Virus record (IMG/VR): IMGVR_UViG_3300001598_000001
Coordinates: 32,001 to 96,000 of that record
Reading direction: 5' to 3' (one strand)
DNA length: 64,000 nt
Source of the DNA: a virus
Taxonomy: Duplodnaviria; Caudoviricetes
Below, in pieces: positions 11,119 through 56,289 of this stretch. The notes beneath the pieces were generated by a model. It was not told the origin of the DNA and did no database searches. It saw only the letters and a list, made by a program, of their open reading frames with translations. Both the position numbers and the translations under genes were made by a program. The number at the start of each line of letters is the position of its first letter. The first letter of the stretch is position 1.

Positions 11119-14019
11119 TTATTCGCCTCCTTCATCATCATCTTCTTCAATATTTAAATCATCATCTTCCACGTTATTATAGTTTGATCAATTAAACATA
11201 GCTTCAATTAATCGATCTACCGCAATACTTGTGGTATCAGATACATCTTTTAAATAATATTTATTTCCTAAATATTCATATGTACCTTCTTCATTATCTT
11301 TAACAGGTGCAAAAGTTGGACCAGGAGGAATTAATTCAACAATCTTTTCTCCTATAATTTCCCAAGCAAATCCTCAGTTAAAATTAGACAATGTTTGAGA
11401 TAGTTTGTGACAATAGAATAAGAACTCCTCATATGATAAACCAGTATCTAATAATTGGATTTGTAATTCTTTGATAATAGCATCATAGATATTAGAACGT
11501 AATTCAATATAGTCATCATCAAAAGTGTCCTTATTATATAATGCAGTTAAACGTTTAATTTGTTTTTTAGATGTGTAGGATGAATACATCTTTTTAACCT
11601 TTGCTAATTTAATTTCGTCAAAACTATTTTCATAATCTTTTTCATATGTTGGTAGTTTTGATATTTTATATTTCTTATTTCCTGTTTGAACATCTTTTGC
11701 AAATTTAATATCAAAATCAATTGATTCAAATTCACGACAGAGTCTATTCATGGTACAATCAGAAGTGATTAAAGGAGAATATTTTTGATAACGACGAATT
11801 AACATTTTTTCTTCTTCTGTTTGATTTTCTTTCTTTAATAACTTTTTAAATTTAATTCCAAACATATCACGACTGATTTGATTATAAGAATCTTCAAAAC
11901 GTTTAAATTTTTGATTTAGTTCTGGATATAAATATCTAAAGAAATAAGGTTTTTTAGCAACAACAATAGCATTGTTTTTAATCTTTTTTAAACGGGTTTC
12001 AGCATCGTCTTCAGGATCTATTTTTTCAAATTTCTTTCATTCTGAAGGTAAGAATGGTTTATCTGCTCCTTTAATACGGTCAATTTCCTGTCCAACAATT
12101 TCACGTAATAATTTAATACGAGTCATGATGATATTATATTGATCTTCATGTCCTGGTTTATTAAAGATTGCAGCCATTGCATAAAGTATAGTTGCAGTAT
12201 TAGAAAATCCACCAACTCCAGTACCAAAACCTTTCATAACTGTTTTTGTAATATTGTTAACCGTCATTTTTGCTGGAACGGCTAATCCTTTTTCATAAGT
12301 GATAATACTGTGATCTTTATGAGAACCTTTAATAAAATATTCATTATCAGTAGATAATACAATATCTCCATCAAAGTCAGCGTCTTCGGCTCTAAATACA
12401 GCAGTGTCGTATGTAGAAAAAACAATACCACTGTTTAAATAACGCAACCAATAATCTGCTTCGTCATTATGTAACAAAACTTTACTTGGATTATGTTCAT
12501 GGACATCAATCATTGGGCTACGACATAAATCAACGATATCAGCATTTCTTTTATTTCAGAACGATGACCAAATAGTGTCTTTTGGAACAATACCAACTGG
12601 ATCTAATCCCAAAGCAGCTTGACACTGAGCTACAGGATCGCTAACCATAAATTGATAATTTCCTTTGATTCATATTTTTCCTAATTTAGCATGATTAATA
12701 GATTCGGCAATATTTTTATAAATTTTATATTGAACATAACTATCTTGTAAAAAATCAACATTTTTCACAACAGCTTTCATTGCTGATGTTTGAGCAATAC
12801 TGTACATTGAATCATAATCTACGTCATTGTCTTTTACACCAAATGAATATAATAATGTTGGTAATAATTCACCAGAACAAATTTGTTGAATTCAATTTAC
12901 TGTAGGTTGAATTAATTGCTTAATATCTTCTTTACTCAACTCAAGAGATTGAATATATTGATAATTAGCTAAAACATATTCTTCATCTTGACGTTTGTTG
13001 TATCTAGCTACACCTCAATGAATTTCACCTTGTTTAGCATATTCACAATATTCTTGCCAACTATTATAATATTTATAAGTTTTAAATTGTGATTCGGAAA
13101 GTAAAACATCAATATCATTGATATTGTATTCTACACCCCAACGATCTCTAATGGTGAAGATATTATGTTTATGAGCATATTCTTTAAAATCAAATGTTGC
13201 TAAATTACCTTTAATAAAACAAGATCTTGCTACAAATGAACAAGGGGTATAAGATAAATTCATATCTTGTGCCCAAAGCTCAGCAAAATAAGGATCAATT
13301 AATCCTTGTCCATCAGCACAGTTTAATTCTAAGTCCATAATTCTTGGATCAATATATGATTTACCATTTTCATCTTTACAAATAAAATCCACTTTTTCGT
13401 TTGGTAAAGTACGATAAAAATCTTTTATTACACAAACTCTTGGTGTTCTTACCCAAAGAATAGAGGAAAAAGCTAATGCAAAATAAGCACTATACTTAGC
13501 TAAAACAAATTGAGAAGTTTTTTCATCTAATCCACAATTTAATCTTTTAACTAAAAAATCATACAATTCTTCATTTACAAAAGTAGCTGTGTTACGTCTA
13601 ATTTGTCCAGACCCAGAACATAAATAAACATAATGAATTCCATTAACATTAAATCCATTGACACGAAATTTATGAAAGTCAGATTTTTTACCGTCTAAAT
13701 AAACGTTAATAATATCTTTAACAAATAATTTTTCAGTAATCGCTCTATCTAAAATATGTGCTTCTTTATACTTACCTTGCTTTTTATAAATATGCATGGT
13801 ACTACGTAATTGACTAATTTTATTAAAAAGTTTATTATGTTCTTGATAATTTCCATAGTAATATCTGATTTGTTGAAAAATTAGATTATCACCAATTGAA
13901 ACAATATTTTCTTCTTTTTCTCCACGTGATATGGTATAATTTTCAATTTGACAATTGTTAGCAACTATAAACGAAGCAGGTAATTTAAAGACTTGATATA
14001 AGTTTTGACAAACTGCCAT
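11119..14019 (-). CDS. YonO-like single-subunit DNA-dependent RNA polymerase (cellular RdRP fold), TGA=Trp
   Basis: Three track ORFs fuse into 966 aa through ~7 TGA. Motifs CADGQG, FIKG, RSP, DADFDGD, VGGFSN, GQEIDRIK. Context matches SPbeta yonO. Confidence 0.9.
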
Positions 14020-18206: not shown

Positions 18207-20126
18207 ATGATTAGTATTTATAAACGTAAAATTAATAATAATTTAACCATACGTGATTATGACTCTATGAAGAAATATATTCGACTTATACAATGGGGAC
18301 GTAAGAATCCTGTACAATTTATAGAAAAAATTTTTGGTATCACTTTAATGGATTATCAAAAATGATTAATTGCAGAGTCTTGGACCAAAGAGTATGTTGT
18401 TTGAGCTTGTAGTCGTAATGCTGGTAAATCATTTTTAATTGGTTTGTTTATTATGGCTCGTAATTTGTTATTTCCAAAATTACAAACTCAAATTATTTCT
18501 GAAAACTGACAAACTTGTAATGATACTTTTTTAACAATGGAAAAAATTGCCACAAACAATATCAAAACCATTATTAATGACAATACTGTATTTATTGATG
18601 AATTATATAAAACTAAATCTGATTCAGACGGATTTATTCACGATGCCAAAGGTGGAAACAAGTGTAAATTATCAAACGGATCATCTATTTCGGCAATTGC
18701 TGGATCATCTAGATCTGCCAGAGGCCGAAGATCAAACTTAAATGTTTATGATGAAGCTGGTTTTATTGGTAAAGATACTTTTGATATTACTGAACCTTAT
18801 ATGGGTCAATCTTCAGAATTTAAATTAGGTTCTTCTTATGATCCAGAAGTTTACCCAAGAGAAATACCTAATATTCGTTTGTATATTGGTTCAGCATCTG
18901 ATACTAATTCATTGTTTTATGAAAAATACAAAGAAGGGGTTAAACAAATGTTAGCTGGAAGTAATAAATATTTTGTTGCTGACATTAGTTGTGAAATTCC
19001 TAAACATCCTACTGTTAAAGGAAAAGAAGCCAAACCTTTGCTTTCTCAAGAAGAAATTGATCGTAAGATGAGAGAAAATGAAATTGTCGCTATGAGAGAA
19101 TATTACAATATTTTTGATCATTTTGATTTAGAAGATTCTATTGTAACTCGTTCTGACATTTTTACAAATACTGAAACATTTGTTCCAGCAATTACTTGGG
19201 GTGGTAAAAAACATAAATATATTATTTCATATGACCCAGCATCTAAAAACGATAACGCGCCTGTACTAGTTACAGATATGTTTAAAAATGAAGATGGAGA
19301 AATTTGTGGTCGCTGTGTCCATATGGAGAATTTGATTGTTACTTATGGTGATGGATCTAAACGCCCCATGAGAATTGATGAACAAGTTCAGAGATTACGA
19401 GAAATGATATATGAATATAATGGTCGAGAAAATATTGCACCATATGAAAATGTTGTTGTCTTATTAGATTTTGGTGTTGGTGGACAAGCTAGTTCTATTT
19501 GTCAAGAGTTATGTAAAGATTGGACCGATAGTAAAGGAAAGGTTCATCCAGGAATTTATGATGAAGAAAATGAATTTAGCAGATTATGGGCTGAAAAATT
19601 TCCTCATGCAGTTCCAGGGTGTCTAAAAATGGTTGAGCCACGTAAATTTAGAAATGATTTATTTACATCTGCAAAAACATTGGTTCCAATGGGTGCTATT
19701 AAATTTTCACCAAAATGCCCAAAATATGATATTTTGGTTTTAGATGATGGTACTGAAAGAAAATTAGGTAAATCTGAACTAAACTCTTTAATTCAGATGG
19801 ATTTAATGAAAGAAGAAATAGCTTCAATTGTTAGAATCAAAAACCCAACTGGTAATATCACTTTTCAGTTACCACCAGAAAAACGTGGTAAAATGCATGA
19901 TGACCGTTGTTATGTTTTTGTATTAGCATGTTGATGGATTCATCAACAGAGAACTAATGAAACTTTTGGAGATGATGGTGTAGGTTTAGATTATAGTAAA
20001 TTAATCGGTGCTACTCCTGTTAGGTCTCAAGTTTCTAATGATGATCCTTGATTAAAAGGATTATCGGGAAATAAATCTACTATTAAAAGGAGTCCGTTCC
20101 AGGGTAAATCTCCATTTAGTAGATAA
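18207..20126 (+). CDS. terL: Terminase large subunit, TGA=Trp
   Basis: 639 aa. Walker A VV[W=TGA]ACSRNAGKS, ARGRR, Walker B VYDEAG, nuclease SYDPA...HDDR. Confidence 0.9.
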
Positions 20127-40220: not shown

Positions 40221-40294
40221 GTTGATTTAATTTAATGGAAGAATAGTTGTTCAGTAAACAATGCACATTGGTTCGATTCCAATAATCAACGCCA
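40221..40294 (+). tRNA. Atypical tRNA, anticodon AGT (Thr by anticodon; identity uncertain)
   Basis: GTTGATT/AATCAAC acceptor, ATTGG-TTCGATT-CCAAT T arm, GTTGT-TCAGTAA-ACAAT anticodon arm, G-CCA end; C at position 33. Confidence 0.65.
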
Positions 40295-40311: not shown

Positions 40312-40340
40312 TTGACAGTTTTTTAATTACCCAATATAAT
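40312..40340 (+). promoter_or_regulatory. Consensus sigma70 promoter of the tRNA(UCA)/ncRNA operon
   Basis: TTGACA-17 nt-TATAAT with ACCCAA before the -10. Confidence 0.8.
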
Positions 40341-40547: not shown

Positions 40548-40642
40548 AGGGGCTTAGTGTAGTGGTAGCACACGAGACTTCAAATCTCGGGTAACAGCGT
40601 CCAAAGCTGCGGGTGTGGGTTCGATTCCTACAGCCCCTGCCA
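40548..40642 (+). tRNA. Opal-decoding tRNA-Trp(UCA) with a 25-nt variable region
   Basis: AGGGGCT/AGCCCCT-G-CCA acceptor (Trp-like), GTGT/GCAC D stem, CGAGA-CTTCAAA-TCTCG anticodon arm, GTGGG-TTCGATT-CCTAC T arm. Confidence 0.9.
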
Positions 40643-40650
40643 TATATTTA

Positions 40651-41183
40651 AACAGTATAAATTTAAATATATTAGATCTCGGTGTAAACCAGACAATCTG
40701 GCCGAGAGTTACAAAGTAATGGATAGGTTTAGAGGATACCCTAAACTGAAAACCAAGATTATTATAGTGATATAATATGAGAAGATACCAACTAGTATCA
40801 ACAACGGGTAACGTGCTAATATAATATCGGAGATAAAACCTAAATCCAACGCTCTCGTAATAACTCGTCCATATGCTCATACCAGGTGGTGCTGATGGTC
40901 AACATATGGAAAAACCAACAAGAGAGAATGCCTTGATGTCTAGTAAGTAGACTATAAGTTGGGATAAGGACAAGTAGCTGAATGGCGGTTCGTATGAAAA
41001 AGTACATATTTCAAAATCTGAAAGTCGGTGAAAGTTAGAGGTACCCAGTCCTCTCGATGGTAAAAAGGGCAAGAAGCTTTATGGTCGCAACTTAAAGCTC
41101 AGACTTGTTCTATTCGTAGTTTAACAATCAGATATTATAAGTGGTAAGACGAAGGTCTCTAATACATTTAAATTTATACTGTT
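40651..41183 (+). ncRNA. Large structured ncRNA, ROOL-like
   Basis: ~530 nt closed by a 26-bp near-perfect terminal stem; many internal hairpins; no credible ORF; tRNA-adjacent. Segments resemble ROOL from memory only. Confidence 0.65.
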
Positions 41184-41606: not shown

Positions 41607-41679
41607 TAAATAATAGTAATAAATATCGACAAGATCTCTAAGATGAGATCTTGTTTTTATATCTAAGGAGGTAATTCTT

Positions 41680-44553: not shown

Positions 44554-47500
44554 ATGAAAGAAAAAATAATTGAATATACAAACCTTAGTGATATTGATTT
44601 TAGTAAAAATAGCACGTTATACAAAGATATTAGTAGTATGGATAAGAAAGTCCGTGCTTTTGACGCTAGATCCAATGAAATTAATGATAAAATAAGTAAA
44701 GAAATATTCAGAGACGCTTTAGTAAGTGGTGGTAACAATAGTATTTTAGATTCTTTACATGGTATAGAAAACCTATGTCGTAGTAACGGAATTCAAACTA
44801 AAGTAACAGTAACAAACGATGGAATTAGTTTAGTGGCTTATGATGAAAATAATCAAGTTGTACCAGTTATCTCTTATATGGCTGGTTCAGATGGATTAGT
44901 AATTCGTGATAATTTAGTAGTATTAGATTCTTTGTATTATAGTCAAAATAATGCCACTGGTAAATCTCAATTAATTAATGGAACAGTTGCTTATTTAAAT
45001 GAGTTTAATAAAATTTTAAAAACTAATTGAAGTAAGTTAAAATCACAAAAACAAGATTTTAGTTCTATTTTACAGTTTGCTCGTAATGAAGCTAATAAAC
45101 AAATTCCTATAACTAATCAAGGAACTTATAAATTTGTTGGTAATTCTGGAAAAGAGATTTTATCAAACTTAAAAAAACAAAAAAATGTTTTTAAAAACAA
45201 GAGTAAGAGTTTCGATGTTGATCCTAGTGCGTTTTGAGAAAATATTATTTATGACACTGTTAGAAAATCGGTAGCTCCTGGGGTTACTTCACAAGATCAA
45301 TCTTGAGCACAAAAAGAACGTGAAATTCGTCCAATAATAGAAAAACTTGCTAAAGAAGCTTCTAAACTACCTTCTGTAAAACAAGCAACTCGATTATTTA
45401 GTGAAGATTATGATATTAGAAAATTAATTACTAAAGACAGTAATCTAAAAGCTAAGATTATGGAAGCGGTTAGATTTTTTTCTGAAATTACTTGAAATCA
45501 ATCTAATATGTCTGAAGCTGATGCCCATAAAGGTAAAGTGGCAATATTTGGCGATAGTAGAACTGGTATTTCTGGTCAAGAATCAATTACTAAAAAAGAT
45601 CAAGGTAGTTCATATTTAAAACGAACTAAAGCTGGTCAACACAATACTTATGCACATGTAGCTGGTGGTATTTTAACTTCTAAAACAGGTTTTAAAGGTA
45701 ATTCTGCAGATTATGATTTATTTACTATTGCTCCTGTTGAATCTGAAGCAATTTCTGAAGGTATGAATAATATGTTTAAAGCAGCCGTAGAACACGAAAA
45801 GGTTGCTCGTGAAAACATTAAAAAATACGGAGAAAATATCAAACACAAGGCAGAATTAATTAAAATATTAAAAAATAAACTTGATACTATTAAAAAAGAT
45901 GACTATAGTGATTTAGAACATGAAATGATTTCTCAAATTATGGAAATTTATGAAAATTATCGCACTGTTCATGATACAGGTAATAATCAAGTGCAATTTG
46001 ATACTCCTGAAGAATTTAGAGATTATTTAGTTAATGAAGCTAATAAACGTTTTGCTCAAAAAGTAAAACAACGCAAAACTTATAATAAAGAAAGAAAGAA
46101 ATCTTTAACTAGTGAAATTGCTGATATTAAAGTTGCAAACACAGACGCTAAATATAAACAAGCAGCAGCTAAAGCTTATCATAAAATTAATGAAGAATCT
46201 GTAGAAGATTTTGCTTTAGACAAATTGCGCAAACAATATCATATGGATTTTAATCCTAATAAGCCTCATTCTGATGTGTTGGATGATCAAATCATTATAG
46301 TTAAAGAAGCATTAGCTGAAATACAAACACAATTAATGCAACAACAAGTTTTTACAGAAAAAGATATTAAAAAAGCTATGAAAGCTGGAAATTATCAAAT
46401 TTCTGAAGAAGCTGTGTTGGCTAAAATAAACGAACAACGAAAACAGCAAGGTTTAGATCCTGTTTCTATGAAAGACCTAAAAGTTGGACTTAATAAAGAA
46501 AAAGGTGTATTTACAGCACAATATACTGAAGATTTTATTATCAAAGAAGGAACTAAATTATTAAATTATTTAGGTAGAGAACGTTGATCTTCTTCAAGTT
46601 TACCAGCAGATGTAATGAAATCTGTCTTAAAAGCACAAGCACGATTAATTGCTTCTGTTAAATCTGGTACTAATGATGTTAATGACACTAAATATCAAAA
46701 AGAATTTGCAAAAGCCAATTCTATGTATTTTGATTCCAATGATAATCTTAAAGTTGCAGGCGTTAGTGGAATTAGTTCATCTATTAAAGGTGAAAAATTT
46801 TATGGTTGAAGCCAAGGTGTTATGTCCTATGCTTTAGGTGAATTGTTTAATCAAAGTTATAAAAAGAATATTTCTAATGGTCAAGAAAAAGCAGTAGCTA
46901 AGTCTGAAGCTATTAATAAAGTTCGTGAAAAATGAAATGAATCTGTAGATAAACTAGTCGCACAAGGACAATTAACTACAGAACAAGGTGAAAAATTTAA
47001 ACAATTAGTTACAGGTGTTAATGAAAAAACTGGAAAAGTAAATTTTAATACTGATTCAAAAATTACAGATTTTGTTAATAAAAATTTAGTACATTACGTC
47101 AAGTTAATTAATACTGTTTACAAAGATAATACAGGCCGTAAACTTGGTACTTATAAAAATAATAAAAATGAAGGAGAAGTTTTTGAACTTGATCCTTATG
47201 CTTTATATGATATAGGTATTAATCCGTCTATAGTTGCCGAGGGAGATTGGGATCCACATAAGAGAGTTTCAATGGCTCATAATGAAAGACAAATTAAAGA
47301 AAGAGAAAATGAACGTTTAGCAGCTATGGGTAAAGACGTCACTGTTGAAAGAGCTATGCTTGATGTTCAATATGAACAAGCTATTGAAAAAAATACTAAA
47401 TATCAAAATAAATTAAAAGCTGTTAGAGACGCAGTTACTAATAATTTTAATGCTGATAGAATTGATGTTGAAGACAAAGATAAAGATATCACAGCTATTG

Positions 47501-50500
47501 TAAATTTAGCTGATTTAAATAATGCTAAAAATGTTGAAAGAGATGTTATTGACCCTGCTACATTTAATTCTAAAGATTTTACTCAAACTAAAGAGGGTAT
47601 TATTTGGACAGCACAACAAAATAAATATCAAGAATTATTAAATGAGTTTATTGATCCAAATAAAATTAAAGAAATTGAAGAATTGCGTAAAGCTAAAAAA
47701 TATAAAAAAGCAAAAGAATTAGAGGTACTAGAACAACAAAGAGTACAAAAAGCCGTATTAGATAAATATAAAGTTGAAAGTGCCAAAGATATTAAAATTG
47801 CTGGAAAAACTAATATTCAAGGATATTTAAATAAGAGTGTATCTGGATTAGATTATGATGCTATGACAGGAGAGCTTTTAGATCTTGCTGGATACGATAT
47901 AGAACAAGATGAAAATGGCAATTATCGTATTAACAACACAGCAGACTATGAATATAATCGTAGTATTCTGAGATCTTATGAAAACGCTCTTAAAGAAGAT
48001 ATTTTAGAAGATAGACAAGCAAAATTTGGAACTGGAATTTATAAAGCTGGTCTTGAACGTGAGCGAGCTTACGTAGAGAAAAAAGGTTCGGAATTTGAAA
48101 AATTTGCTAAAAAAGAAAGAACACATAGTAAATTTTTAAAAACTAAAGATTTAAATAATGCTGAAAAAGATACATTATATACTAGTAAGAGTGATATTAA
48201 TGAAATGATTTCTCAACGAGAGAATGAAACTGATGAGGAATATAATAAACTTATTAAAGGTATATACAAAGATACTTTAGGTGTTAATAATGCTCCAAGA
48301 AGAAAACAAAATGAAACTCTTCAAGATTATAATACTCGTATTAAAGATAGTGTATTAAAAGCTATTATAGAAGACGATAAAGATCTTATCATGGATGTCA
48401 CTAGAGATCCTAATAATACAGCTATGGCTGGTATGAAAGTTAAAATTAAACATTTAACTGGTATAGGCGAAGGTGTAGTTGGAGGAGATCCAGCTTTAAT
48501 TAAATTTCTTAAAGGTGACTATGATGGTGATAGATTAGGTTTAGCTTTAGATGCTGATGGTAATATTATTGGTGCTGTTCGTATGACTCAAAAACAAGTT
48601 GACGAACATATGCTAAAAGAAAGAATATTAGCGGAAGAAGATGCTGAAGTATTACGTTTTATTACCAATCAAAAAGGTGGAAGTACTTTACCGTCTGCCA
48701 GCACAGCTATTAAAATAGACAAAAATGGTAAAAAATATATTGAAAATACTACGTTAGATGTAGCTGATTTAACAGGACTTGAACGTAATGCTTCAACACA
48801 ATTATTATCATTTGAAGCAAAACAAAATAAGGATGACTATGTTGGACTATATTCTAATTTTAGAACTAGTGCAACTACTGGATTAGAAGAAAAATTTGGA
48901 AAAGGTTTAGGTAAAACAGTAAATACTGCTAAAACTGGATTAGCTATTGAAGCCTTATCTTTATTATTGGCTCGTCCAGAACAAGCTGCAATTTCTTCTA
49001 AACACTTGAAAAATTTAGCAGCCACTGATCCTGAATTATTTAAACAGTGATTTGAATGAGAAGAAAATGAAAATGGTGAACTTATTCATAAAAAAGATGA
49101 AAATGGCAATGTTATTTTCAAACAAGCTTATTTAGATCGTTATGAAAAATTAGCTAAAGATTTAAAGAATTCTGATAATTGAAACAGTGAAACTCAAAGA
49201 GAAGCATTATTACAAGAAATGGTTAATCTTGGAATGATTGAAGGTAGTGGTAAATTTACTGACGATCAATTCTTTGGTGAATTTTGAAAACTTGCTAATA
49301 CTGAATTAGGACGTAAAGGTTTAACTGGTATTAACAAACGTTATAATAAATTATACGGAAAAGATGGTAAATTAAAAGCTGGTGCTGATTTAAGTATCAT
49401 GGATCTTGATTTTATCAGAGATATGTTAAATTGGTTATCAGTTCAAAGTGCAGAACTTGCTCCTAATGAAACATTGGGACATATAGTAACTACTGGTAGA
49501 CAATCTGCTCTTGATAAACAACGTGTTTATGATCAAAAAAATTTAATTGAAAAACCAACTGAAAAACAAATCAAAGAACACAAAGAATCCTTGGGTAAAG
49601 ATGTCGAAGTAGAAATTCTTAAATCTATTAATTTATTAATTGATACTATTAGACAGTCTAGTGGAGTCATTGCTCAAGCAGCAGGTATTAGTGGTGGTAA
49701 TGGAAATCGTTTTGCTTATAATATTTCTAATATTACAGATAATAATAAGAGAAATGTTTTAGCTGCTGCATCCAGAGCTGGTGGCTATACTAATAAAATT
49801 ACACCTACTGAGATTGCTCGAGTGAATGCTCGTAGTGGGGATAAAATTTATAGTAATTGAGATGAAATAATTAAAATTTTAGAAGATCCTACTGTAGATG
49901 TTAAAGAGAAACAACGTATTATTGGTCAAATGTCCGATGCTGACAAAAATTGGGCATTAGCCACTCGTCGTGGTAAATTAGTTCACCAATTTAGTGAAGA
50001 TCAACGTTTAATTGAAAAATATAATTTAACTAACGTAGATCCAAATAAATGAAATGAAACATTAATTAATCAATTTAAAAACACCAATGATATCAATGAA
50101 AGAAAAGAAATTTCTCAATTTTTAGGTATTTTAAACAAAAAATCTGACGAATTAAATCATGAAAATGGTGGTTTTGTAAAACAATATAAAGAATTTAGTG
50201 AATTAAGTAAAATTTTAGATATCAAAGATACAGATTGATTATCTAAAATTATAGCATCAGCTCAAATTTTAAATAAAATGTCTTCCAATGAAACAGTTAT
50301 TGGTAAAGAAGTTGGTATGCATAATTATATTAATGTTAATGGTGAAGATACTGTTGAACATGGATATATTGACCAAATTACCAGAGCGGCTGTTAAGAAG
50401 GCCCAAACAGATATTAATGGTGAAAAATATGAAGTAGATGCTAATCGTTATACAATGGAAGATTTAAAAACTACTTCTGGAACAGGGGTTGATCTTTCAT

Positions 50501-53500
50501 TAAAAGACGCAGAACAAGTTCTTCGTTATATTAATTATGGTAGTCAGGCTAATAAACAGTTTAAAGAGGAATTAGGTGGACTTGCAAAAGTTCCTACCAC
50601 AGCCAAAGAGTTAAAAGATTTTTTAGCCAATGAAAAAGATTTAAATAAATATGCTGCAATTCGTCAATTTGTTGATGATATTGAAGAAAATGGTGGGGTA
50701 CTTACTGACGATCAAGTTCAAATGTTAGCAGATAAAAATGCTATTTTTGAAGGACGTATTAAAAAAGTAGATACTCAAACAAATGAAGCTGCATCGTATC
50801 GTATTGGTGCAAGTCAAGCTAAAGAACTTATTCAAAGATCACAAAACGGAGAAGATATTAGTGGATTTTTAGGTAATTTTGTTGAAGAAAGACAATTTTA
50901 TCAAGCTGGTAATTCTGTTTCTGAACTTAAAGAAGAAATTACTTTATTAAAACAAAAATATGAATTACAGTTAAAAATTAATAAAGCTTTATTAGAAGGA
51001 AAAGATAATGAAGCTGCTGTTCTACAAGAACAAGAAAAAGAAGTTGATCTAAAACTTAAAGAAGCTCAGAAATCAACTAATAAAATTGCTGACACCACAG
51101 AAAGAAAAAAATATGTTCGCGATACTCGTAAGGAGATTGAAGAACAATTACAAAAAGAAAATGATCAAGCTTTAAAGTTGTTACAAGCTCAAAAGAATGA
51201 TAAACAAAAAGCTGGTCCTAATAAAAATATATTAGCTCGTTTGAGCACGGGATTTGATGAGGGAATTACTCAACGTTTGAATCGTGCATTTAGTGGTTAT
51301 GCTATTTTTGCTAAACTTACTCAAGGGATCCAAACCGTTAAAAAGAATGTTATTGATTTAGATAAAGTTTTGACTAATCTTCGTATTGTCACTCAACAAA
51401 ATGAAGAAAGTACTCGAAACTTGATTAAGGGGTATTCAGAACTTGCAGGAGAATTAGGTGTGTCAACAACAGCTGTTGCTACAGCTGGACAAGAATGGCT
51501 AAGACAAGGCTATGATATAGCAGAAACCAACAAATTAATTGAAGCTTCAACTAAATTAAGTATTTTAGGTATGATGTCTTCTGCTGATGCTGTTAAATCA
51601 TTAACCAGTGCAATGAAAGGATTTAAAATGGAATCCTCAGAAGCAATAGATATAGTAGATAAATTAACCAAATTAGATGTTAATGCTGCTACTACTGCTG
51701 GTGAAATTGCTAGTGCATTATCAGAATTTGCAAACGCTGCAAGTTTAGGTGGCTTAAATATTGATCAAGCTTCAGCAATGGCAACTACTATCATGGATGT
51801 TACTCAAAATAGTGGTTCTCAAGCTGGTAATGCTCTGAAAATGATGTTATCAAGATTTGGTAATGTTAAATCTGGTGCCTATTCAACTCTTAATATTTCT
51901 GGCGATGCAGATACGGAAAGTGCTAGTCTAAACGATGTAGAAAAGGTTTTAAAGAATATTGGTGTATCATTAAGATCATCAAATTTAGAATTCCGTTCAT
52001 TTAGCGAAGTTTTAGATGAAATTAGTGAAAAATGGGTTAATTTAGATAATGTTAGTAAGAATGCAATTGCAACTGCTTTTGCTGGAACAAGACAACGTGA
52101 ATCTTTCCTTGTCTTGATGGAAAACTATGATAAATATCAACAATTACTAAAAGTATCTGAAAGTGCCGCTGGAACTTCTGAAGAAAAAATTAAATCTTAT
52201 CAAGAATCTATTGCTGCTTTACAAGAAGAAATAAAAGCCGCATGGGAAAATTTAGCTAATAATAAATCTATTTCTGACTTCTTAAAACTTATACTTAGTA
52301 CTACAACCCAACTTATTAAATGATTACCGTGAATAGTTAATATATTAAAACCATTATTAGCTACTAAAACAATTAGTATCGCTTCCAACTTTTTTGGTAA
52401 TGGGTTAAAAAATGGATTTTCTGGTTTATTTAAAAATGTTACTGCTACACAAAAGAATACAACAGCAATTGAAAAATTAACTACAACTTTAGAAAATACT
52501 TCGAACACTTCTGGAAACGGCGTATATAGTCGTAATAATATTGCAGTTGGTGCTGCGGGTATTACATCTACAGGTGCATTAACTTATGGTAATAAATCTG
52601 TCGGTCTTGGTGATGATGGTAAGTATTATTATTTAAAGAACGATGGTTCTTTATCTAAAAGATCAGTTAGTGCTGCGGGACAAAAAGAAATTCAACAAAC
52701 CGCAGAAAATAATAAAAAGCTTAAAAAAGCTGGTAGTTGAAGAAATAAAACGGGTGGTGAAAAAGTTGCTGCTGGTGCAGCTGCTGGATTATTAGCTGGG
52801 TTAACAGCTGATACCGATACCAAAGATATATATGGTACAGGAGACACAACCGTTAATTCTACATTACAAACTATAGATAAAGTTGCTACTGGTGCGGTAA
52901 CTGGTATAGCTACAGCAATTGGCGGACCTATTGTTGGGGGTATTGCTAATATATTAATGGAAGTTGCTACAAAATATGCAATGCCATGATTAGAAAAAAT
53001 TTTCTTCAAACGCGATTTTGAATTAAAACTTTTAAATAAAAGTATTAATGAAGCAAAAGAAAATATTGAAAAAATTAATAATATTCAAAACTCTTTAAAT
53101 ACTTTAGTAGAATTATCAAATAAAAACATTTTAATTGGTGAAGATTATACCAAAGCTGTTGATGAATTCAATAAAATATCTGCAGCACTGGTTGATGACC
53201 CTAAAACACTTAGTGTTTGAAATGAAATTTTACATAATACAGATGATTTATTAGATGGTGTAGATAATGAAACGCTTTCTTTGTCTACTTTACGAGAAGC
53301 TTATTTAACTGGTAGTGCTCAAGAGAGAGCTGAAATAGCTACTGCTTTACGTGCATCATCAGAATTAGTTGAAGCTAGAGAATTCCAACGAACTTATTCG
53401 GCAAAAATGTATGAAGTTAATGAAACTATTAATAGTGCTCGTCAATATGATGCTGAATTTTTAGAGAAAAACGGAGTTTTAGATCAATATAAACAATATG

Positions 53501-56289
53501 CTAAAAATAAATATGCACAAATGAGTGATGCCGAAATTATTAAACAATTTGGCAGTGTTGCAAGCGAATTAAAGTATGGAATAAATTGACTTGGTGGTTG
53601 GACAAATTTTAACACTAATAAAATGACTTCTTTAGACGTTGTTGCTCAGGAAGTTAGAAAATATTTAGAAGATAATGTTGATAAAACTTTCCAAGACAAT
53701 TTTAACTCTGATGTTCATTTACGCGAAGAATTATCTACTTTATTAAATGAAAGTGTTCTTGTTGATTATTGAAACCAAACTATTGAAAGTTTAACTAAAC
53801 AATTGGAACAAGGTGAAAATGTTAGTGAAGAACTACGCAAAGCTAATAACGAACTAAACAAAGTTCAAAATGCTATTAATTTAAAACAAAACTATACAGA
53901 TGAAATTAATTATAAATATGCTCAAGCAGCATTATCTGCTTCTGGTTTAGAAAATTTAACTCAAGCACAATTAAATAATATGGGTTATAAAGATAAACTT
54001 AATAAAATTGCAGAAAATATGGAGTCTTATGGTTATTCTGTTTATAATTCTGATGGTGTGTTATCAGCTCAAGCTCAAACATATATTGAAAATGCTATTA
54101 GAAGTAATAGTAAAATATATGGATCTGTTAGTGGTCAAGTCTATTCATTAGCTGAAGTTTTAAACAAAGATAATGAAAATTTATTTAGAAATTATCAAGA
54201 AATTCTATGGCAGTGATCAGAAGCTTTGGGTGTAAGTGTTGATGAATTAGATGATTTAAAAGATACTTTAGGAGATATTACCTTAGCTCAAGTTTTAAAA
54301 ACTCCAGACGAAACACGTCAAAATATTTCTGAACTAACTTCTATGTTCACATCTATTTCTTCTTCTACTGGTATTACCGCTGAAAATATAGAGAACATTA
54401 TTACAAAGTTCCCACAATTATTACCTTATGCAAGTAGTGTTGGTGATTTAATTGGGGGGTTAACCAAAGGCATAGAACAGTATAGTAAATTATATGCATA
54501 TCAGATCACTAATCAAATTTTAAATAGTGAATCTGTACTTTCAGATATTCAAAAAAATATGAGAGAGGGTACTGTAGATGTTGATATAAGTGAAGATGAT
54601 CAAAAACAATTATATGAAACATTGTTATCTAACTATTCATTTGGTAATGGAAGTGTTTTAAATGATATGCTTGGTTTAATATGGGGTAATGCTGAAGAAA
54701 ACGGTATAAGTGAGGAAAATCAAGAAAAATTACGAACTATTGTAGAATCTTATTTACCAGATATAGAAAATACGCTTGAGCGAGATTCTATTAAGCAACA
54801 AATAGATTATCAACAAAAATTATTTGATCAACAAATTAATAATTTACAAGAACAAAAAGAAATGTTAGATAATATAAATCATCAACGTGAGTATGAAAAT
54901 AAATTAATCGAAGCTAAACTCAAATTAGAAAATTCTCAAAAAGAAAAGAAAAGAGTTTGAAGATCTGGAGTTGGTTGGACTTATGAAGCTGATCAAAACA
55001 GTATTTTAGAAGCCCAAAAACAATTAGAAGATGTTGAAAATGAAAAGAACGTCTCTAAAATTGATCAAGAAATTCAATTATTGAATTCACAAAAAGAGTT
55101 ATTAGCTAATATTGCTAGTAGTGAAGAATTTGAAAATATGCGAGATTCGTGAAAAGGTTGGTCTGAACAAATGAAGCTTTATAATGAAGATCAAGAAACC
55201 ATAATCACTAATTTATCAACTTTATATAGTTCAATTAGCAAAATTTCTACTAAGGATATAGCTGAAGACATAGCTGATGCTGGAGTAAATAATGCTGATG
55301 AAAAATTAAATACATTAGATACTTTATATAATACAGCTCAATCTTATATAACTGGCGAAAATAAAAATGCTCCAACTACAGTAACTGCTTCCCAAGAATA
55401 TGCAGATTGAGAAAATAATCGAAATAATGCTCTAACAGCTTATCAAACAAAAGCCAATGAGTATAAGAACGTTATTACTCAAGATTGACAAACCAAACAC
55501 TCAGATCATGCAGCCATTATGAAAGCTTCTCAGCTTCATAATCAACAAGATACTATCATGATTGATGGAAAAGCCTATACTGTTGGCAATCAACCATTAA
55601 GTGACACAGATCCTTACTATCAATGAGTACAAGATGACCTTCGCGCAGGCGAAAAAGGCCCTCAAGACAGTAATGGTAAGGGTAAAGGTAAGTATGTTAA
55701 AGTATTTGATCCAAAAACAAGTACAGAGACAAACGAAGATGGAATATTAAATTATTCTCGAAGTAAAAGTAAAACATATGGAGAGGTTAATGGTTCTGAT
55801 GATAAAAAAGATTATAGTAGTTTAGTGTTATCAGATGTGGCAGCAAGTTTGAGTGATGGTACTATTTTAAGTAGTGAAAGTGGAACCGTAGAATATGTTA
55901 TGGTTATGAACCATCAACTTAGACAATTAGATCCGAAGGCCAAAGGAACTTTAGATTTAAATAGTCATGGCGTTTTATTGAATGAATTAGGAACAGAAGC
56001 AATTGTAACACCTCAAGGTACAATTACAGCTCTTCCTTCTCACTCAGGTATTGTGCCAGCTGATATTACTCGTAATTTATGAGAATTAGGAGAAATTTCT
56101 CCTACACTTACACATTTGCTTGATCATTTGAATAATCAAATGGTTCCTGGAAAGAGTGTATTTGGTAATGATGAATCATTTAATATTAATACTATTAATA
56201 TGACAGTTAATGCTGATAATAGTTTTGATGCTCAAAAATTTATTGAGAGTGTTAGACAACGCGCAGCTTTAACAAAACATAATCGTTAA
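44554..56289 (+). CDS. Giant tape-measure protein with N-terminal RNA-polymerase-like and PD-(D/E)XK nuclease-like domains (TGA=Trp)
   Basis: All track fragments share one frame: 3911 aa with ~28 TGA. TP901-type TMP core at ~51340-52260 (EWLRQGY, GNALKMMLSRF). GDYDGD at 48514; DLKT at 50461. Confidence 0.85.

Follow-up and report, generated by a model that had tools for sequence, protein, structure and literature searches.

We analysed a 64,000-nucleotide (nt) stretch of a gut phage genome, positions 32,001 to 96,000 of the IMG/VR record IMGVR_UViG_3300001598_000001 (the window), and found that it encodes a transfer RNA (tRNA) with two anticodon-type arms in tandem, at 40548-40642. The first arm displays UCA, which pairs with the opal codon UGA, and the second reproduces the CCA anticodon arm of ordinary tryptophan tRNA (tRNA-Trp). 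Sequence comparisons make it almost certain that this molecule is the tryptophan (Trp)-inserting UGA decoder of the phage. It appears to be a structural variant, previously undescribed as far as we found, of the known phage opal suppressor tRNAs. The conservation of its second arm, here called the pseudo-anticodon arm, is well supported, and a role of that arm in recruiting the tryptophanyl-tRNA synthetase (TrpRS) of the host is plausible.

ARAGORN detected a 95-nt tRNA with anticodon tca exactly where a preliminary description of the locus had placed it, though under the label SeC. The Rfam tRNA model RF00005 matched with 59.9 bits (gathering score 29), aligning all canonical arms and leaving a 22-nt insertion in the variable region, and ViennaRNA predicted a five-arm cloverleaf. 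The parts of the molecule, with lengths of stems in base pairs (bp), are as follows.

40548..40642, + strand: whole tRNA gene with encoded CCA; predicted opal suppressor tRNA-Trp(UCA) with two anticodon-type arms (ARAGORN, Rfam, five-arm fold)
40548..40554, + strand: 5' strand of the acceptor, AGGGGCU, forming 7 bp with AGCCCCU at 40632-40638; G73 at 40639 (sequence)
40573..40589, + strand: decoding arm, stem CGAGA/UCUCG, loop CUUCAAA, anticodon UCA at 40580-40582 (sequence, Rfam, fold)
40590..40593, + strand: 5' linker GGUA between both arms, 2-7 nt long across the family (family comparison)
40594..40610, + strand: pseudo-anticodon arm, stem (A)CAGC/GCUG(C) with 4 bp and an A-C mismatch, 7-nt loop GUCCAAA, CCA at 40601-40603 (fold, family consensus, covariation)
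40611..40614, + strand: 3' linker GGGU, with the length and sequence type of a normal tRNA-Trp variable loop, leading into the T arm (colinearity with tRNA-Trp once the UCA arm is removed)
40615-40631, + strand: T arm, GUGGG-UUCGAUU-CCUAC (sequence)

The acceptor pairs A1-U72, G2-C71, G3-C70, G4-C69 and G5-C68, together with G73, make up the full bacterial Trp identity set; bacterial TrpRS recognises G73, the first acceptor pairs and the anticodon C34-C35-A36 (PMC9976931). The D stem has 4 bp (GUGU/GCAC). In these respects the sequence agrees with the preliminary description, which had listed a Trp-type acceptor, G73, a 7-bp acceptor, a 4-bp D stem, UCA and a 25-nt region with a CAGC/GCUG hairpin. 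With 25 nt between the anticodon stem and the T stem, the molecule departs from the size of class I tRNAs, which have a variable loop of 4-5 nt and a total of about 74-76 nt. Nor is it a tRNA-Trp in the usual sense, since CCA sits on the second arm only and the arm under the D stem shows UCA. The second hairpin has the loop GUCCAAA, which is that of the anticodon arm in ordinary tRNA-Trp(CCA), a point absent from the preliminary description. The non-canonical long arm reported earlier is real, conserved and covarying, but it reproduces the anticodon arm of tRNA-Trp(CCA) and is not of the class II type.

Ordinary tRNA-Trp can be recognised in both halves of the molecule. BLAST searches against deposited phage genomes returned matches annotated as ordinary tRNA-Trp, to which each half of the window tRNA aligns separately. 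Positions 8-41, comprising the D arm and the UCA arm, resemble the 5' half of tRNA-Trp, anticodon arm included, and positions 50-93, from the CCA loop onward, resemble the 3' half including the anticodon loop. When the UCA arm and the linker (21 nt) are removed in silico, the remaining 74 nt are colinear with tRNA-Trp(CCA) over the full length; in comparison with that of Streptomyces phage Alone3, 56/74 positions are identical and there are two 1-nt gaps. Because the halves align separately and the arm-deleted remainder aligns end to end, the molecule is, by sequence comparison, a normal tRNA-Trp that has a UCA hairpin inserted after position 26, ahead of its original anticodon arm; a tandem duplication of that arm is an equivalent description. 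Of the two junctions of an ordinary anticodon arm, each arm retains one: a single nucleotide (position 26), as is usual in tRNAs, links the UCA arm to the D stem, and a 4-nt variable loop links the CCA arm to the T stem. The phage tRNA shares with tRNA-Trp(CCA) the acceptor identity set, G73, the D arm, the T arm and the 4-nt variable loop, and its second arm is the Trp anticodon arm; it differs by an extra 17-nt UCA hairpin with a 4-nt linker and by the display of UCA at the canonical decoding position. No cultured phage with the dual-arm design was found among deposited phage genomes when the window tRNA and three family members were compared with them; these comparisons gave half-length matches to tRNA-Trp only.

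Relatives of the tRNA were collected from IMG/VR with two patterns. The first pattern, a UCA loop followed by UCCAAA and then a T-loop, matched 75 contigs, of which about 60 carry tRNAs with the dual-arm build. Since this pattern required UCCAAA and was therefore circular with regard to loop conservation, the search was repeated with the arm left free (fixed GGU-CUUCAAA-ACC, 20-42 nt, T-loop). The arm-free search yielded 63 distinct sequences, comprising about 20 genuine selenocysteine tRNAs (tRNA-Sec), which have 8-bp acceptors, unrelated arm loops and no UCCA in the loop, and 43 tRNAs with 7/5 geometry and G73. UCCA is present in the arm loop of 42 of these 43 distinct long-arm UCA tRNAs: 35 have UCCAAA, 7 have near variants (UUCCAAC, GUCCAUA, GUCCAAG, GUCCAA) and one (L100) has neither. 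Both searches pooled gave 61 distinct G73 members with 41 different stem strands and a loop consensus of N-U-C-C-A-A-A, in which positions 33-36 are invariant (U33 in 61/61) and positions 37-38 nearly so.

The stem of the second arm is maintained as well. Stem strands form 4.64 of 5 pairs with their own partners; permutation of the partners across sequences lowers this to 2.64 +/- 0.12, with a maximum of 3.05. In a MAFFT alignment, compensatory double changes occur at all 5 arm pairs and 89.9% of cells are paired, a value that falls inside the span set by the canonical arms. The complete structure outscores all shuffles and slid controls, and RNAalifold predicts the second arm unprompted. A conserved loop together with 41 stem variants kept paired by compensation indicates purifying selection on both structure and loop, and the recurrence of the feature far exceeds what chance would give. 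Covariation of the arm over UCA tRNAs, which the preliminary description had put forward as a check, is thus borne out by 41 distinct stems in 61 distinct relatives.

The meaning of TGA in the phage was assessed from its genes. Non-overlapping coding density rises from 0.63 under code 11 to 0.866 under code 4. The summed length of six-frame open reading frames (ORFs) with TGA read through was also considered as a measure of recoding and was dropped, as controls increased equally. The 91 genes of at least 150 amino acids (aa) contain 153 TGA and 272 TGG codons, so that TGA accounts for 36% of Trp codons; in-frame TGA is present in 35 of these genes and missing from the other 56. Two genes with several such codons are given here.

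18207..20126, + strand: large terminase containing 5 in-frame TGA; W occupies the aligned column of 4 of them in 29-33 of 36 homologues (alignment with 36 full-length homologues)
44554..56289, + strand: tape-measure protein of 3,911 aa with 28 in-frame TGA (ORF reading)

With TGA written as X, we compared all genes shared with three standard-code (table 11) relatives; their terminases, three of the 36 homologues, were confirmed to translate under table 11, so the W residues there are encoded by TGG. The residues facing in-frame TGA in these relatives are W in 57 of 76 cases (background 1.25%), with C in 3, S in 2 and G in 1. Because of this excess of W opposite TGA and the W-dominated terminase columns, TGA is, on the alignments, a Trp codon in this phage. 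The proposal of an opal suppressor of the Trp type is supported, as TGA aligns with W in standard-code homologues and the tRNA body has the bacterial Trp identity set. Mischarging with serine (Ser), also raised in the preliminary description, is contradicted, as Ser faces TGA in only 2/76 cases. The 56 TGA-free genes among 91 and a host-type consensus promoter agree with a host that uses the standard code, in which the tRNA would switch the code during infection.

Both classes, genuine tRNA-Sec and dual-arm tRNAs, also turn up in bacterial genome contigs. Those with dual-arm tRNAs are assigned to Bacteroides, Parabacteroides, Prevotella, Bacilli/Bacillota, Coriobacteriia and Treponema, with the caveat that assignment of phage contigs to metagenome bins is unreliable. 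One dual-arm copy, however, comes from a cultured strain, Bacteroides neonati MS4, where the scaffold that holds it measures 1.48 Mb. The tRNA-Trp of this host reads ACGGGAG...CUCCAAA...G73 and has A1-U72, C2-G71, G4-C69, G5-C68 and G73 in common with the resident dual-arm tRNA, and the AGGGG acceptor of the window copy is the one described for Bacillus subtilis tRNA-Trp (PMC9976931). Since the B. neonati copy resembles its host tRNA-Trp and the window copy has AGGGG, the acceptor stems appear to track the Trp identity of the host type. The B. neonati copy belongs to a provirus (L158 / L236; G001:C2, about 130,900-131,000) that is weakly recoded, with a gain in coding density of 0.05-0.06 under code 4. 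This phage may still use the standard code and have acquired the suppressor beforehand.

We put the probability at roughly 55% that the second arm gives host TrpRS an intact CCA loop, so that the UCA suppressor is charged with Trp. A UCA anticodon lacks the C34 that bacterial TrpRS reads in C34-C35-A36. In the proposed mechanism, host RNA polymerase would transcribe the tRNA from the consensus promoter, the second arm would present its CCA loop to host TrpRS and allow efficient charging with Trp, and the UCA arm would decode UGA on the ribosome. The charged tRNA would then permit translation of the recoded genes, including those of the phage RNA polymerase and the virion. The enzyme might gain access to the second arm either as a handle on the side of the molecule or because both arms swap places under the D stem.

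Several results are consistent with a handle for host TrpRS. The arm goes together with UCA: the dual-arm tRNAs, about 60 in number, carry UCA as their real anticodon, and when the pattern asked for CCA in that place as a control, none of its 10 matches was a dual-arm tRNA. The carriers have a median gain in coding density of 0.119 under code 4, as compared to 0.022 in control phage loci (p = 5e-6). PF00579, the TrpRS domain, was found in none of 50 dual-arm carrier records (0/16 of those at least 90% complete) and not in the window phage. Because the window phage and the 50 other carriers encode no TrpRS, host TrpRS would have to charge the tRNA, and the earlier idea that the arm recruits a dedicated phage synthetase is not supported, as PF00579 is absent from the complete genome. 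Among records with a plain short-loop UCA tRNA, 3/17 have PF00579 (2/6 of the complete ones).

A number of points weigh against this reading. In the L-shaped tRNA, the tip of a variable arm is far from the anticodon and points away from it. Furthermore, an engineered pseudo-anticodon arm required a synthetase with an appended extra anticodon-binding domain (PMC7590224). Given the geometry of the variable arm and the extra domain in the engineered case, either TrpRS would make a different contact or the two arms would trade positions. According to the Borges preprint (bioRxiv 10.1101/2021.08.26.457843), E. coli charges plain opal suppressors of the tRNA-Trp(UCA) type, and phages contain ten short-loop G73 UCA tRNAs, most of them with no detectable TrpRS in records that are often fragmentary; for these two reasons the arm is dispensable in principle and is not strictly required for a Trp-type opal suppressor. 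The contrast in TrpRS content, 0/51 versus 3/17 (Fisher p about 0.014), is weak, as many records are fragments. One Trp-like UCA tRNA (L100:2905-3002, + strand; acceptor AGGGGCU, G73) has a 28-nt insert with neither CCA nor a clear hairpin, the window copy itself forms only 4/5 stem pairs, and position 32 of the pseudo-loop is mostly G, versus C in real tRNA-Trp. As to sampling, the arm-free search still fixed the ends of the anticodon stem (GGU/ACC) and the T-loop, and IMG/VR sequences are related to each other, so that the counts are not independent events.

An extension of the handle reading can be offered tentatively, although we regard it as doubtful. The two tandem arms would compete for stacking on the D stem, with the CCA conformer serving as a perfect tRNA-Trp(CCA) for the host synthetase and the UCA conformer as the decoder for EF-Tu and the ribosome, so that identity would be separated from decoding in a natural two-headed tRNA. 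The same principle, a U34 decoder combined with a cognate N34 pseudo-anticodon, would have evolved independently for TrpRS and isoleucyl-tRNA synthetase (IleRS), as a general viral route to rewrite or extend the host code without bringing a synthetase.

A parallel family, which also counts in favour of the handle reading, is found among phage isoleucine (Ile) tRNAs, where this kind of tRNA(UAU) is very common. Two contigs that hold a dual-arm Trp tRNA also contain a 91-nt tRNA(UAU) (L062:370-460, + strand, and L187), and a search of IMG/VR for long-armed UAU tRNAs with an unconstrained pattern (L242 onward) gave at least 120 matches. The counts that follow are those among the matches listed, which include 52 distinct variable regions of A73 UAU tRNAs. 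At least 31 of these 52 contain a hairpin with the 7-nt loop C-A-G-A-U-N-R, which shows GAU, the anticodon of the major tRNA-Ile. The GAU-arm stems covary (4.55/5 versus 3.16 +/- 0.15 when permuted), and position 33 of the Ile pseudo-loop is A, not U, in 28/31. The two families share one rule: U34 stands in the anticodon that decodes (UCA, UAU), the cognate N34 in the one shown on the extra arm (CCA, GAU), and these two anticodons differ at position 34 only. The Ile family thus resembles the Trp one in its covarying extra hairpin, its 7-nt loop and a class I synthetase that reads position 34, whereas it differs by A73, A33 in the pseudo-loop, a variable position 37 and the reading of a sense codon, AUA. 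A subfamily of the UAU tRNAs (L245, L247, L305, L311, L324, L330) has a CCCU-NNCA-AGG arm without GAU. Another kind of extra arm on a class I tRNA is seen in an 87-nt tRNA(UCU) for arginine (Arg) at L125:6586-6672 (- strand), where the arm is GCCA-GAAA-UGGC with a GNRA tetraloop.

The second arm might instead bind a partner other than TrpRS, such as a phage or host protein, an enzyme that modifies the anticodon loop of tRNA-Trp, or a nuclease or toxin directed at tRNA-Trp, for which it would act as a decoy or shield. A conserved loop and a covarying stem imply only some partner that reads a Trp-type anticodon loop; the pseudo-loop retains A36-A37-A38, the motif of loops that receive a modification at A37, and evasion of anticodon nucleases had been raised in the preliminary description, as had competition with RF2, though positive support came forward for neither. 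We nevertheless consider such a partner unlikely. The arm is confined to tRNAs that decode with UCA and is never seen on those with CCA, which disfavours a general tRNA-Trp decoy because a decoy would not need this restriction; the Ile(UAU)/GAU family suggests a cause common to changes at position 34; and no candidate partner gene was found beside the tRNA. It could also be imagined that either arm stacks under the D stem and enters the ribosome, with UCA reading UGA and CCA reading UGG, an arrangement that would suit the single canonical junction of each arm and the U33 found in all 61 pseudo-loops. This two-headed decoder seems quite improbable. By the wobble rules, a UCA anticodon with U34 normally reads both UGA and UGG, and tRNA-Trp(CCA) is already available from the host, so the second head would be needless; moreover, the A33 in 28/31 Ile pseudo-loops (among the matches listed) is incompatible with the U-turn of decoding.

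Explanations in which the second arm is without function, or in which the tRNA carries another amino acid, fare worse. The arm could be a neutral relic of a tandem anticodon-arm duplication, in which the 5' copy has changed to UCA and the 3' one is a functionless passenger. Both arms do align to the single anticodon arm of ordinary tRNA-Trp and are alike in several members (e.g., GCGGU-CUUCAAA-ACCGU and CGGGU-CUCCAAA-ACCCG in L017), but a passenger would hardly keep positions 33-36 invariant and 37-38 nearly so over 61 distinct sequences, or 41 stem variants paired through compensatory changes, and we judge this very improbable. Removal of the extra hairpin from a precursor, leaving an ordinary 74-nt molecule as the mature tRNA, is harder still to credit. 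The 21-nt deletion in silico does yield a canonical tRNA; without the UCA arm, however, the remaining CCA tRNA would be unable to read UGA efficiently, and if the CCA arm were the one lost, the conservation of its loop would be pointless. We know of no bacterial splicing system for a 21-nt hairpin at such a site in a tRNA. The preliminary description had likewise considered an excised insert, which the invariant loop and a stem that covaries like the canonical arms make unlikely. The chance that the molecule is a selenocysteine-type or Ser-accepting tRNA appears close to negligible, even though ARAGORN labels it tRNA-SeC and a long extra arm with G73 is common to tRNA-Ser and tRNA-Sec. It has 7/5 acceptor/T geometry and a 4-bp D stem instead of the 8/5 geometry and 6-bp D stem of bacterial tRNA-Sec, and, in contrast to class II arms, its extra arm ends in a 7-nt loop of the anticodon type and is attached through linkers of 4-5 nt. 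The residues opposite TGA are S in 2/76, C in 3/76 and W in 57/76, and 153 in-frame TGA over 35 genes are far above what selenocysteine would allow.

Genuine tRNA-Sec genes (L138, L142 and many other genome contigs, from Caulobacteraceae and others) can have UCCAAA in the long arm by chance. There, no hairpin with a 7-nt loop on a 5-bp stem holds the hexamer (0-3/5 paired), and these genes matched the first pattern only because it required the hexamer.

The window phage has much in common with the code-4 phages of the gut, such as the approximately 127-kb 'Agate' (bioRxiv 10.1101/2021.08.26.457843): a UCA tRNA, a large genome of low GC content, structural-gene TGA aligned to Trp, and no synthetase of its own, with charging by the host presumed. 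Borges et al. describe no tRNA architecture in their account, and the second conserved CCA arm is a feature of the window tRNA. They detected suppressor tRNAs in 35% of code-4 phages, suspected that non-canonical tRNAs had been missed, and left open how host synthetases charge phage suppressors (bioRxiv 10.1101/2021.08.26.457843). Seki et al. tried 31 phage tRNA-UCAs, of which 9 were highly active with the own enzymes of E. coli; Trp was inserted by all 13 tRNA-UCAs analysed, and tRNA architecture is not mentioned (PMC12636597). In the records of L120, L121 and L124 (G003, G004, G007), we observed a plain short-loop UCA tRNA together with a class-Ib synthetase of about 330 aa, and two of these tRNAs have A73, not G73. 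By analogy, they may be self-contained pairs like the AP1 pair of Seki et al.

The closest concept comes from engineering. Mukai et al. (2020) raised aminoacylation with a pseudo-anticodon arm placed within the variable arm of suppressor tRNAs, in which the real anticodon reads a stop codon and the variable-arm hairpin mimics the cognate anticodon arm for the synthetase (PMC7590224). Their system is synthetic and uses HisRS, an allo-tRNA chassis and a synthetase with an appended domain, whereas the window tRNA is natural, of the Trp type and presumably served by an unmodified host TrpRS. Its structure is that of a pseudo-anticodon-arm tRNA: a hairpin in the variable region reproduces the cognate anticodon stem-loop. 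tRNA-Sec and the class II tRNAs (Ser; leucine, Leu; tyrosine, Tyr) likewise have a long additional arm that separates the anticodon arm from the T arm, and tRNA-Sec shares UCA and G73 as well; the window tRNA differs from these in its 7/5 rather than 8/5 geometry, 4-bp D stem, long linkers, 7-nt anticodon-type loop and use of TGA as Trp. Our literature searches, whose coverage largely left out subscription journals, found no description of a natural Trp or Ile pseudo-anticodon-arm design.

Charging of phage suppressors by the host is an open question in the main survey of recoded phages, and the conserved arm suggests a concrete mechanism for it. If the handle reading is correct, this would be the first natural tRNA that we could trace with a synthetase identity element moved to a separate arm, a design that synthetic biologists have engineered. 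The architecture also explains why tRNA finders label such genes SeC or miss them, and missed or mislabelled genes probably contribute to the low reported share of recoded phages with a detected suppressor. The dual-arm design could also provide a compact chassis for genetic-code expansion at UGA.

The window belongs to a virus record of 131,489 bp with direct terminal repeats, which is rated complete. The virus is a tailed phage with a large terminase, a portal, the 3,911-aa tape-measure protein and a YonO-type RNA polymerase. Its complete genome contains one UCA tRNA, and neither a class-Ib synthetase (PF00579, TrpRS) nor a release-factor gene was found in it. The features that bear on expression of the tRNA are listed below.

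40312..40340, + strand: putative sigma-70 consensus promoter TTGACA-17-TATAAT with 12/12 matches, about 200 nt 5' of the tRNA (consensus scan)
40654..41177, + strand: ROOL RNA, beginning 12 nt past the CCA of the tRNA (Rfam RF03087, 233 bits)
41628-41655, + strand: next terminator-like hairpin after ROOL (terminator scan)
11119..14019, - strand: YonO-type single-subunit RNA polymerase (PF05183) with 7 in-frame TGA (domain match, ORF reading)

The promoter, a leader of about 200 nt, the suppressor tRNA, ROOL and the hairpin look like one host-transcribed tRNA-ROOL unit. Because the promoter is perfect, ROOL follows after 12 nt and the next hairpin lies beyond ROOL, the tRNA is probably made by host RNA polymerase and co-transcribed with ROOL. 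The phage's own polymerase would need the suppressor tRNA to be working first, since its gene has 7 in-frame TGA. Relatives have SPbeta-like YonB and YonD genes. Another tRNA-like gene with an encoded CCA is located at 40221-40294 (+ strand). It matches the Rfam tRNA model with 54.7 bits and is detected by ARAGORN only at a lowered threshold, as a threonine tRNA, tRNA-Thr(AGU); its anticodon loop, UCAGUAA, has A at position 34 and, where tRNAs universally have U33, a C.

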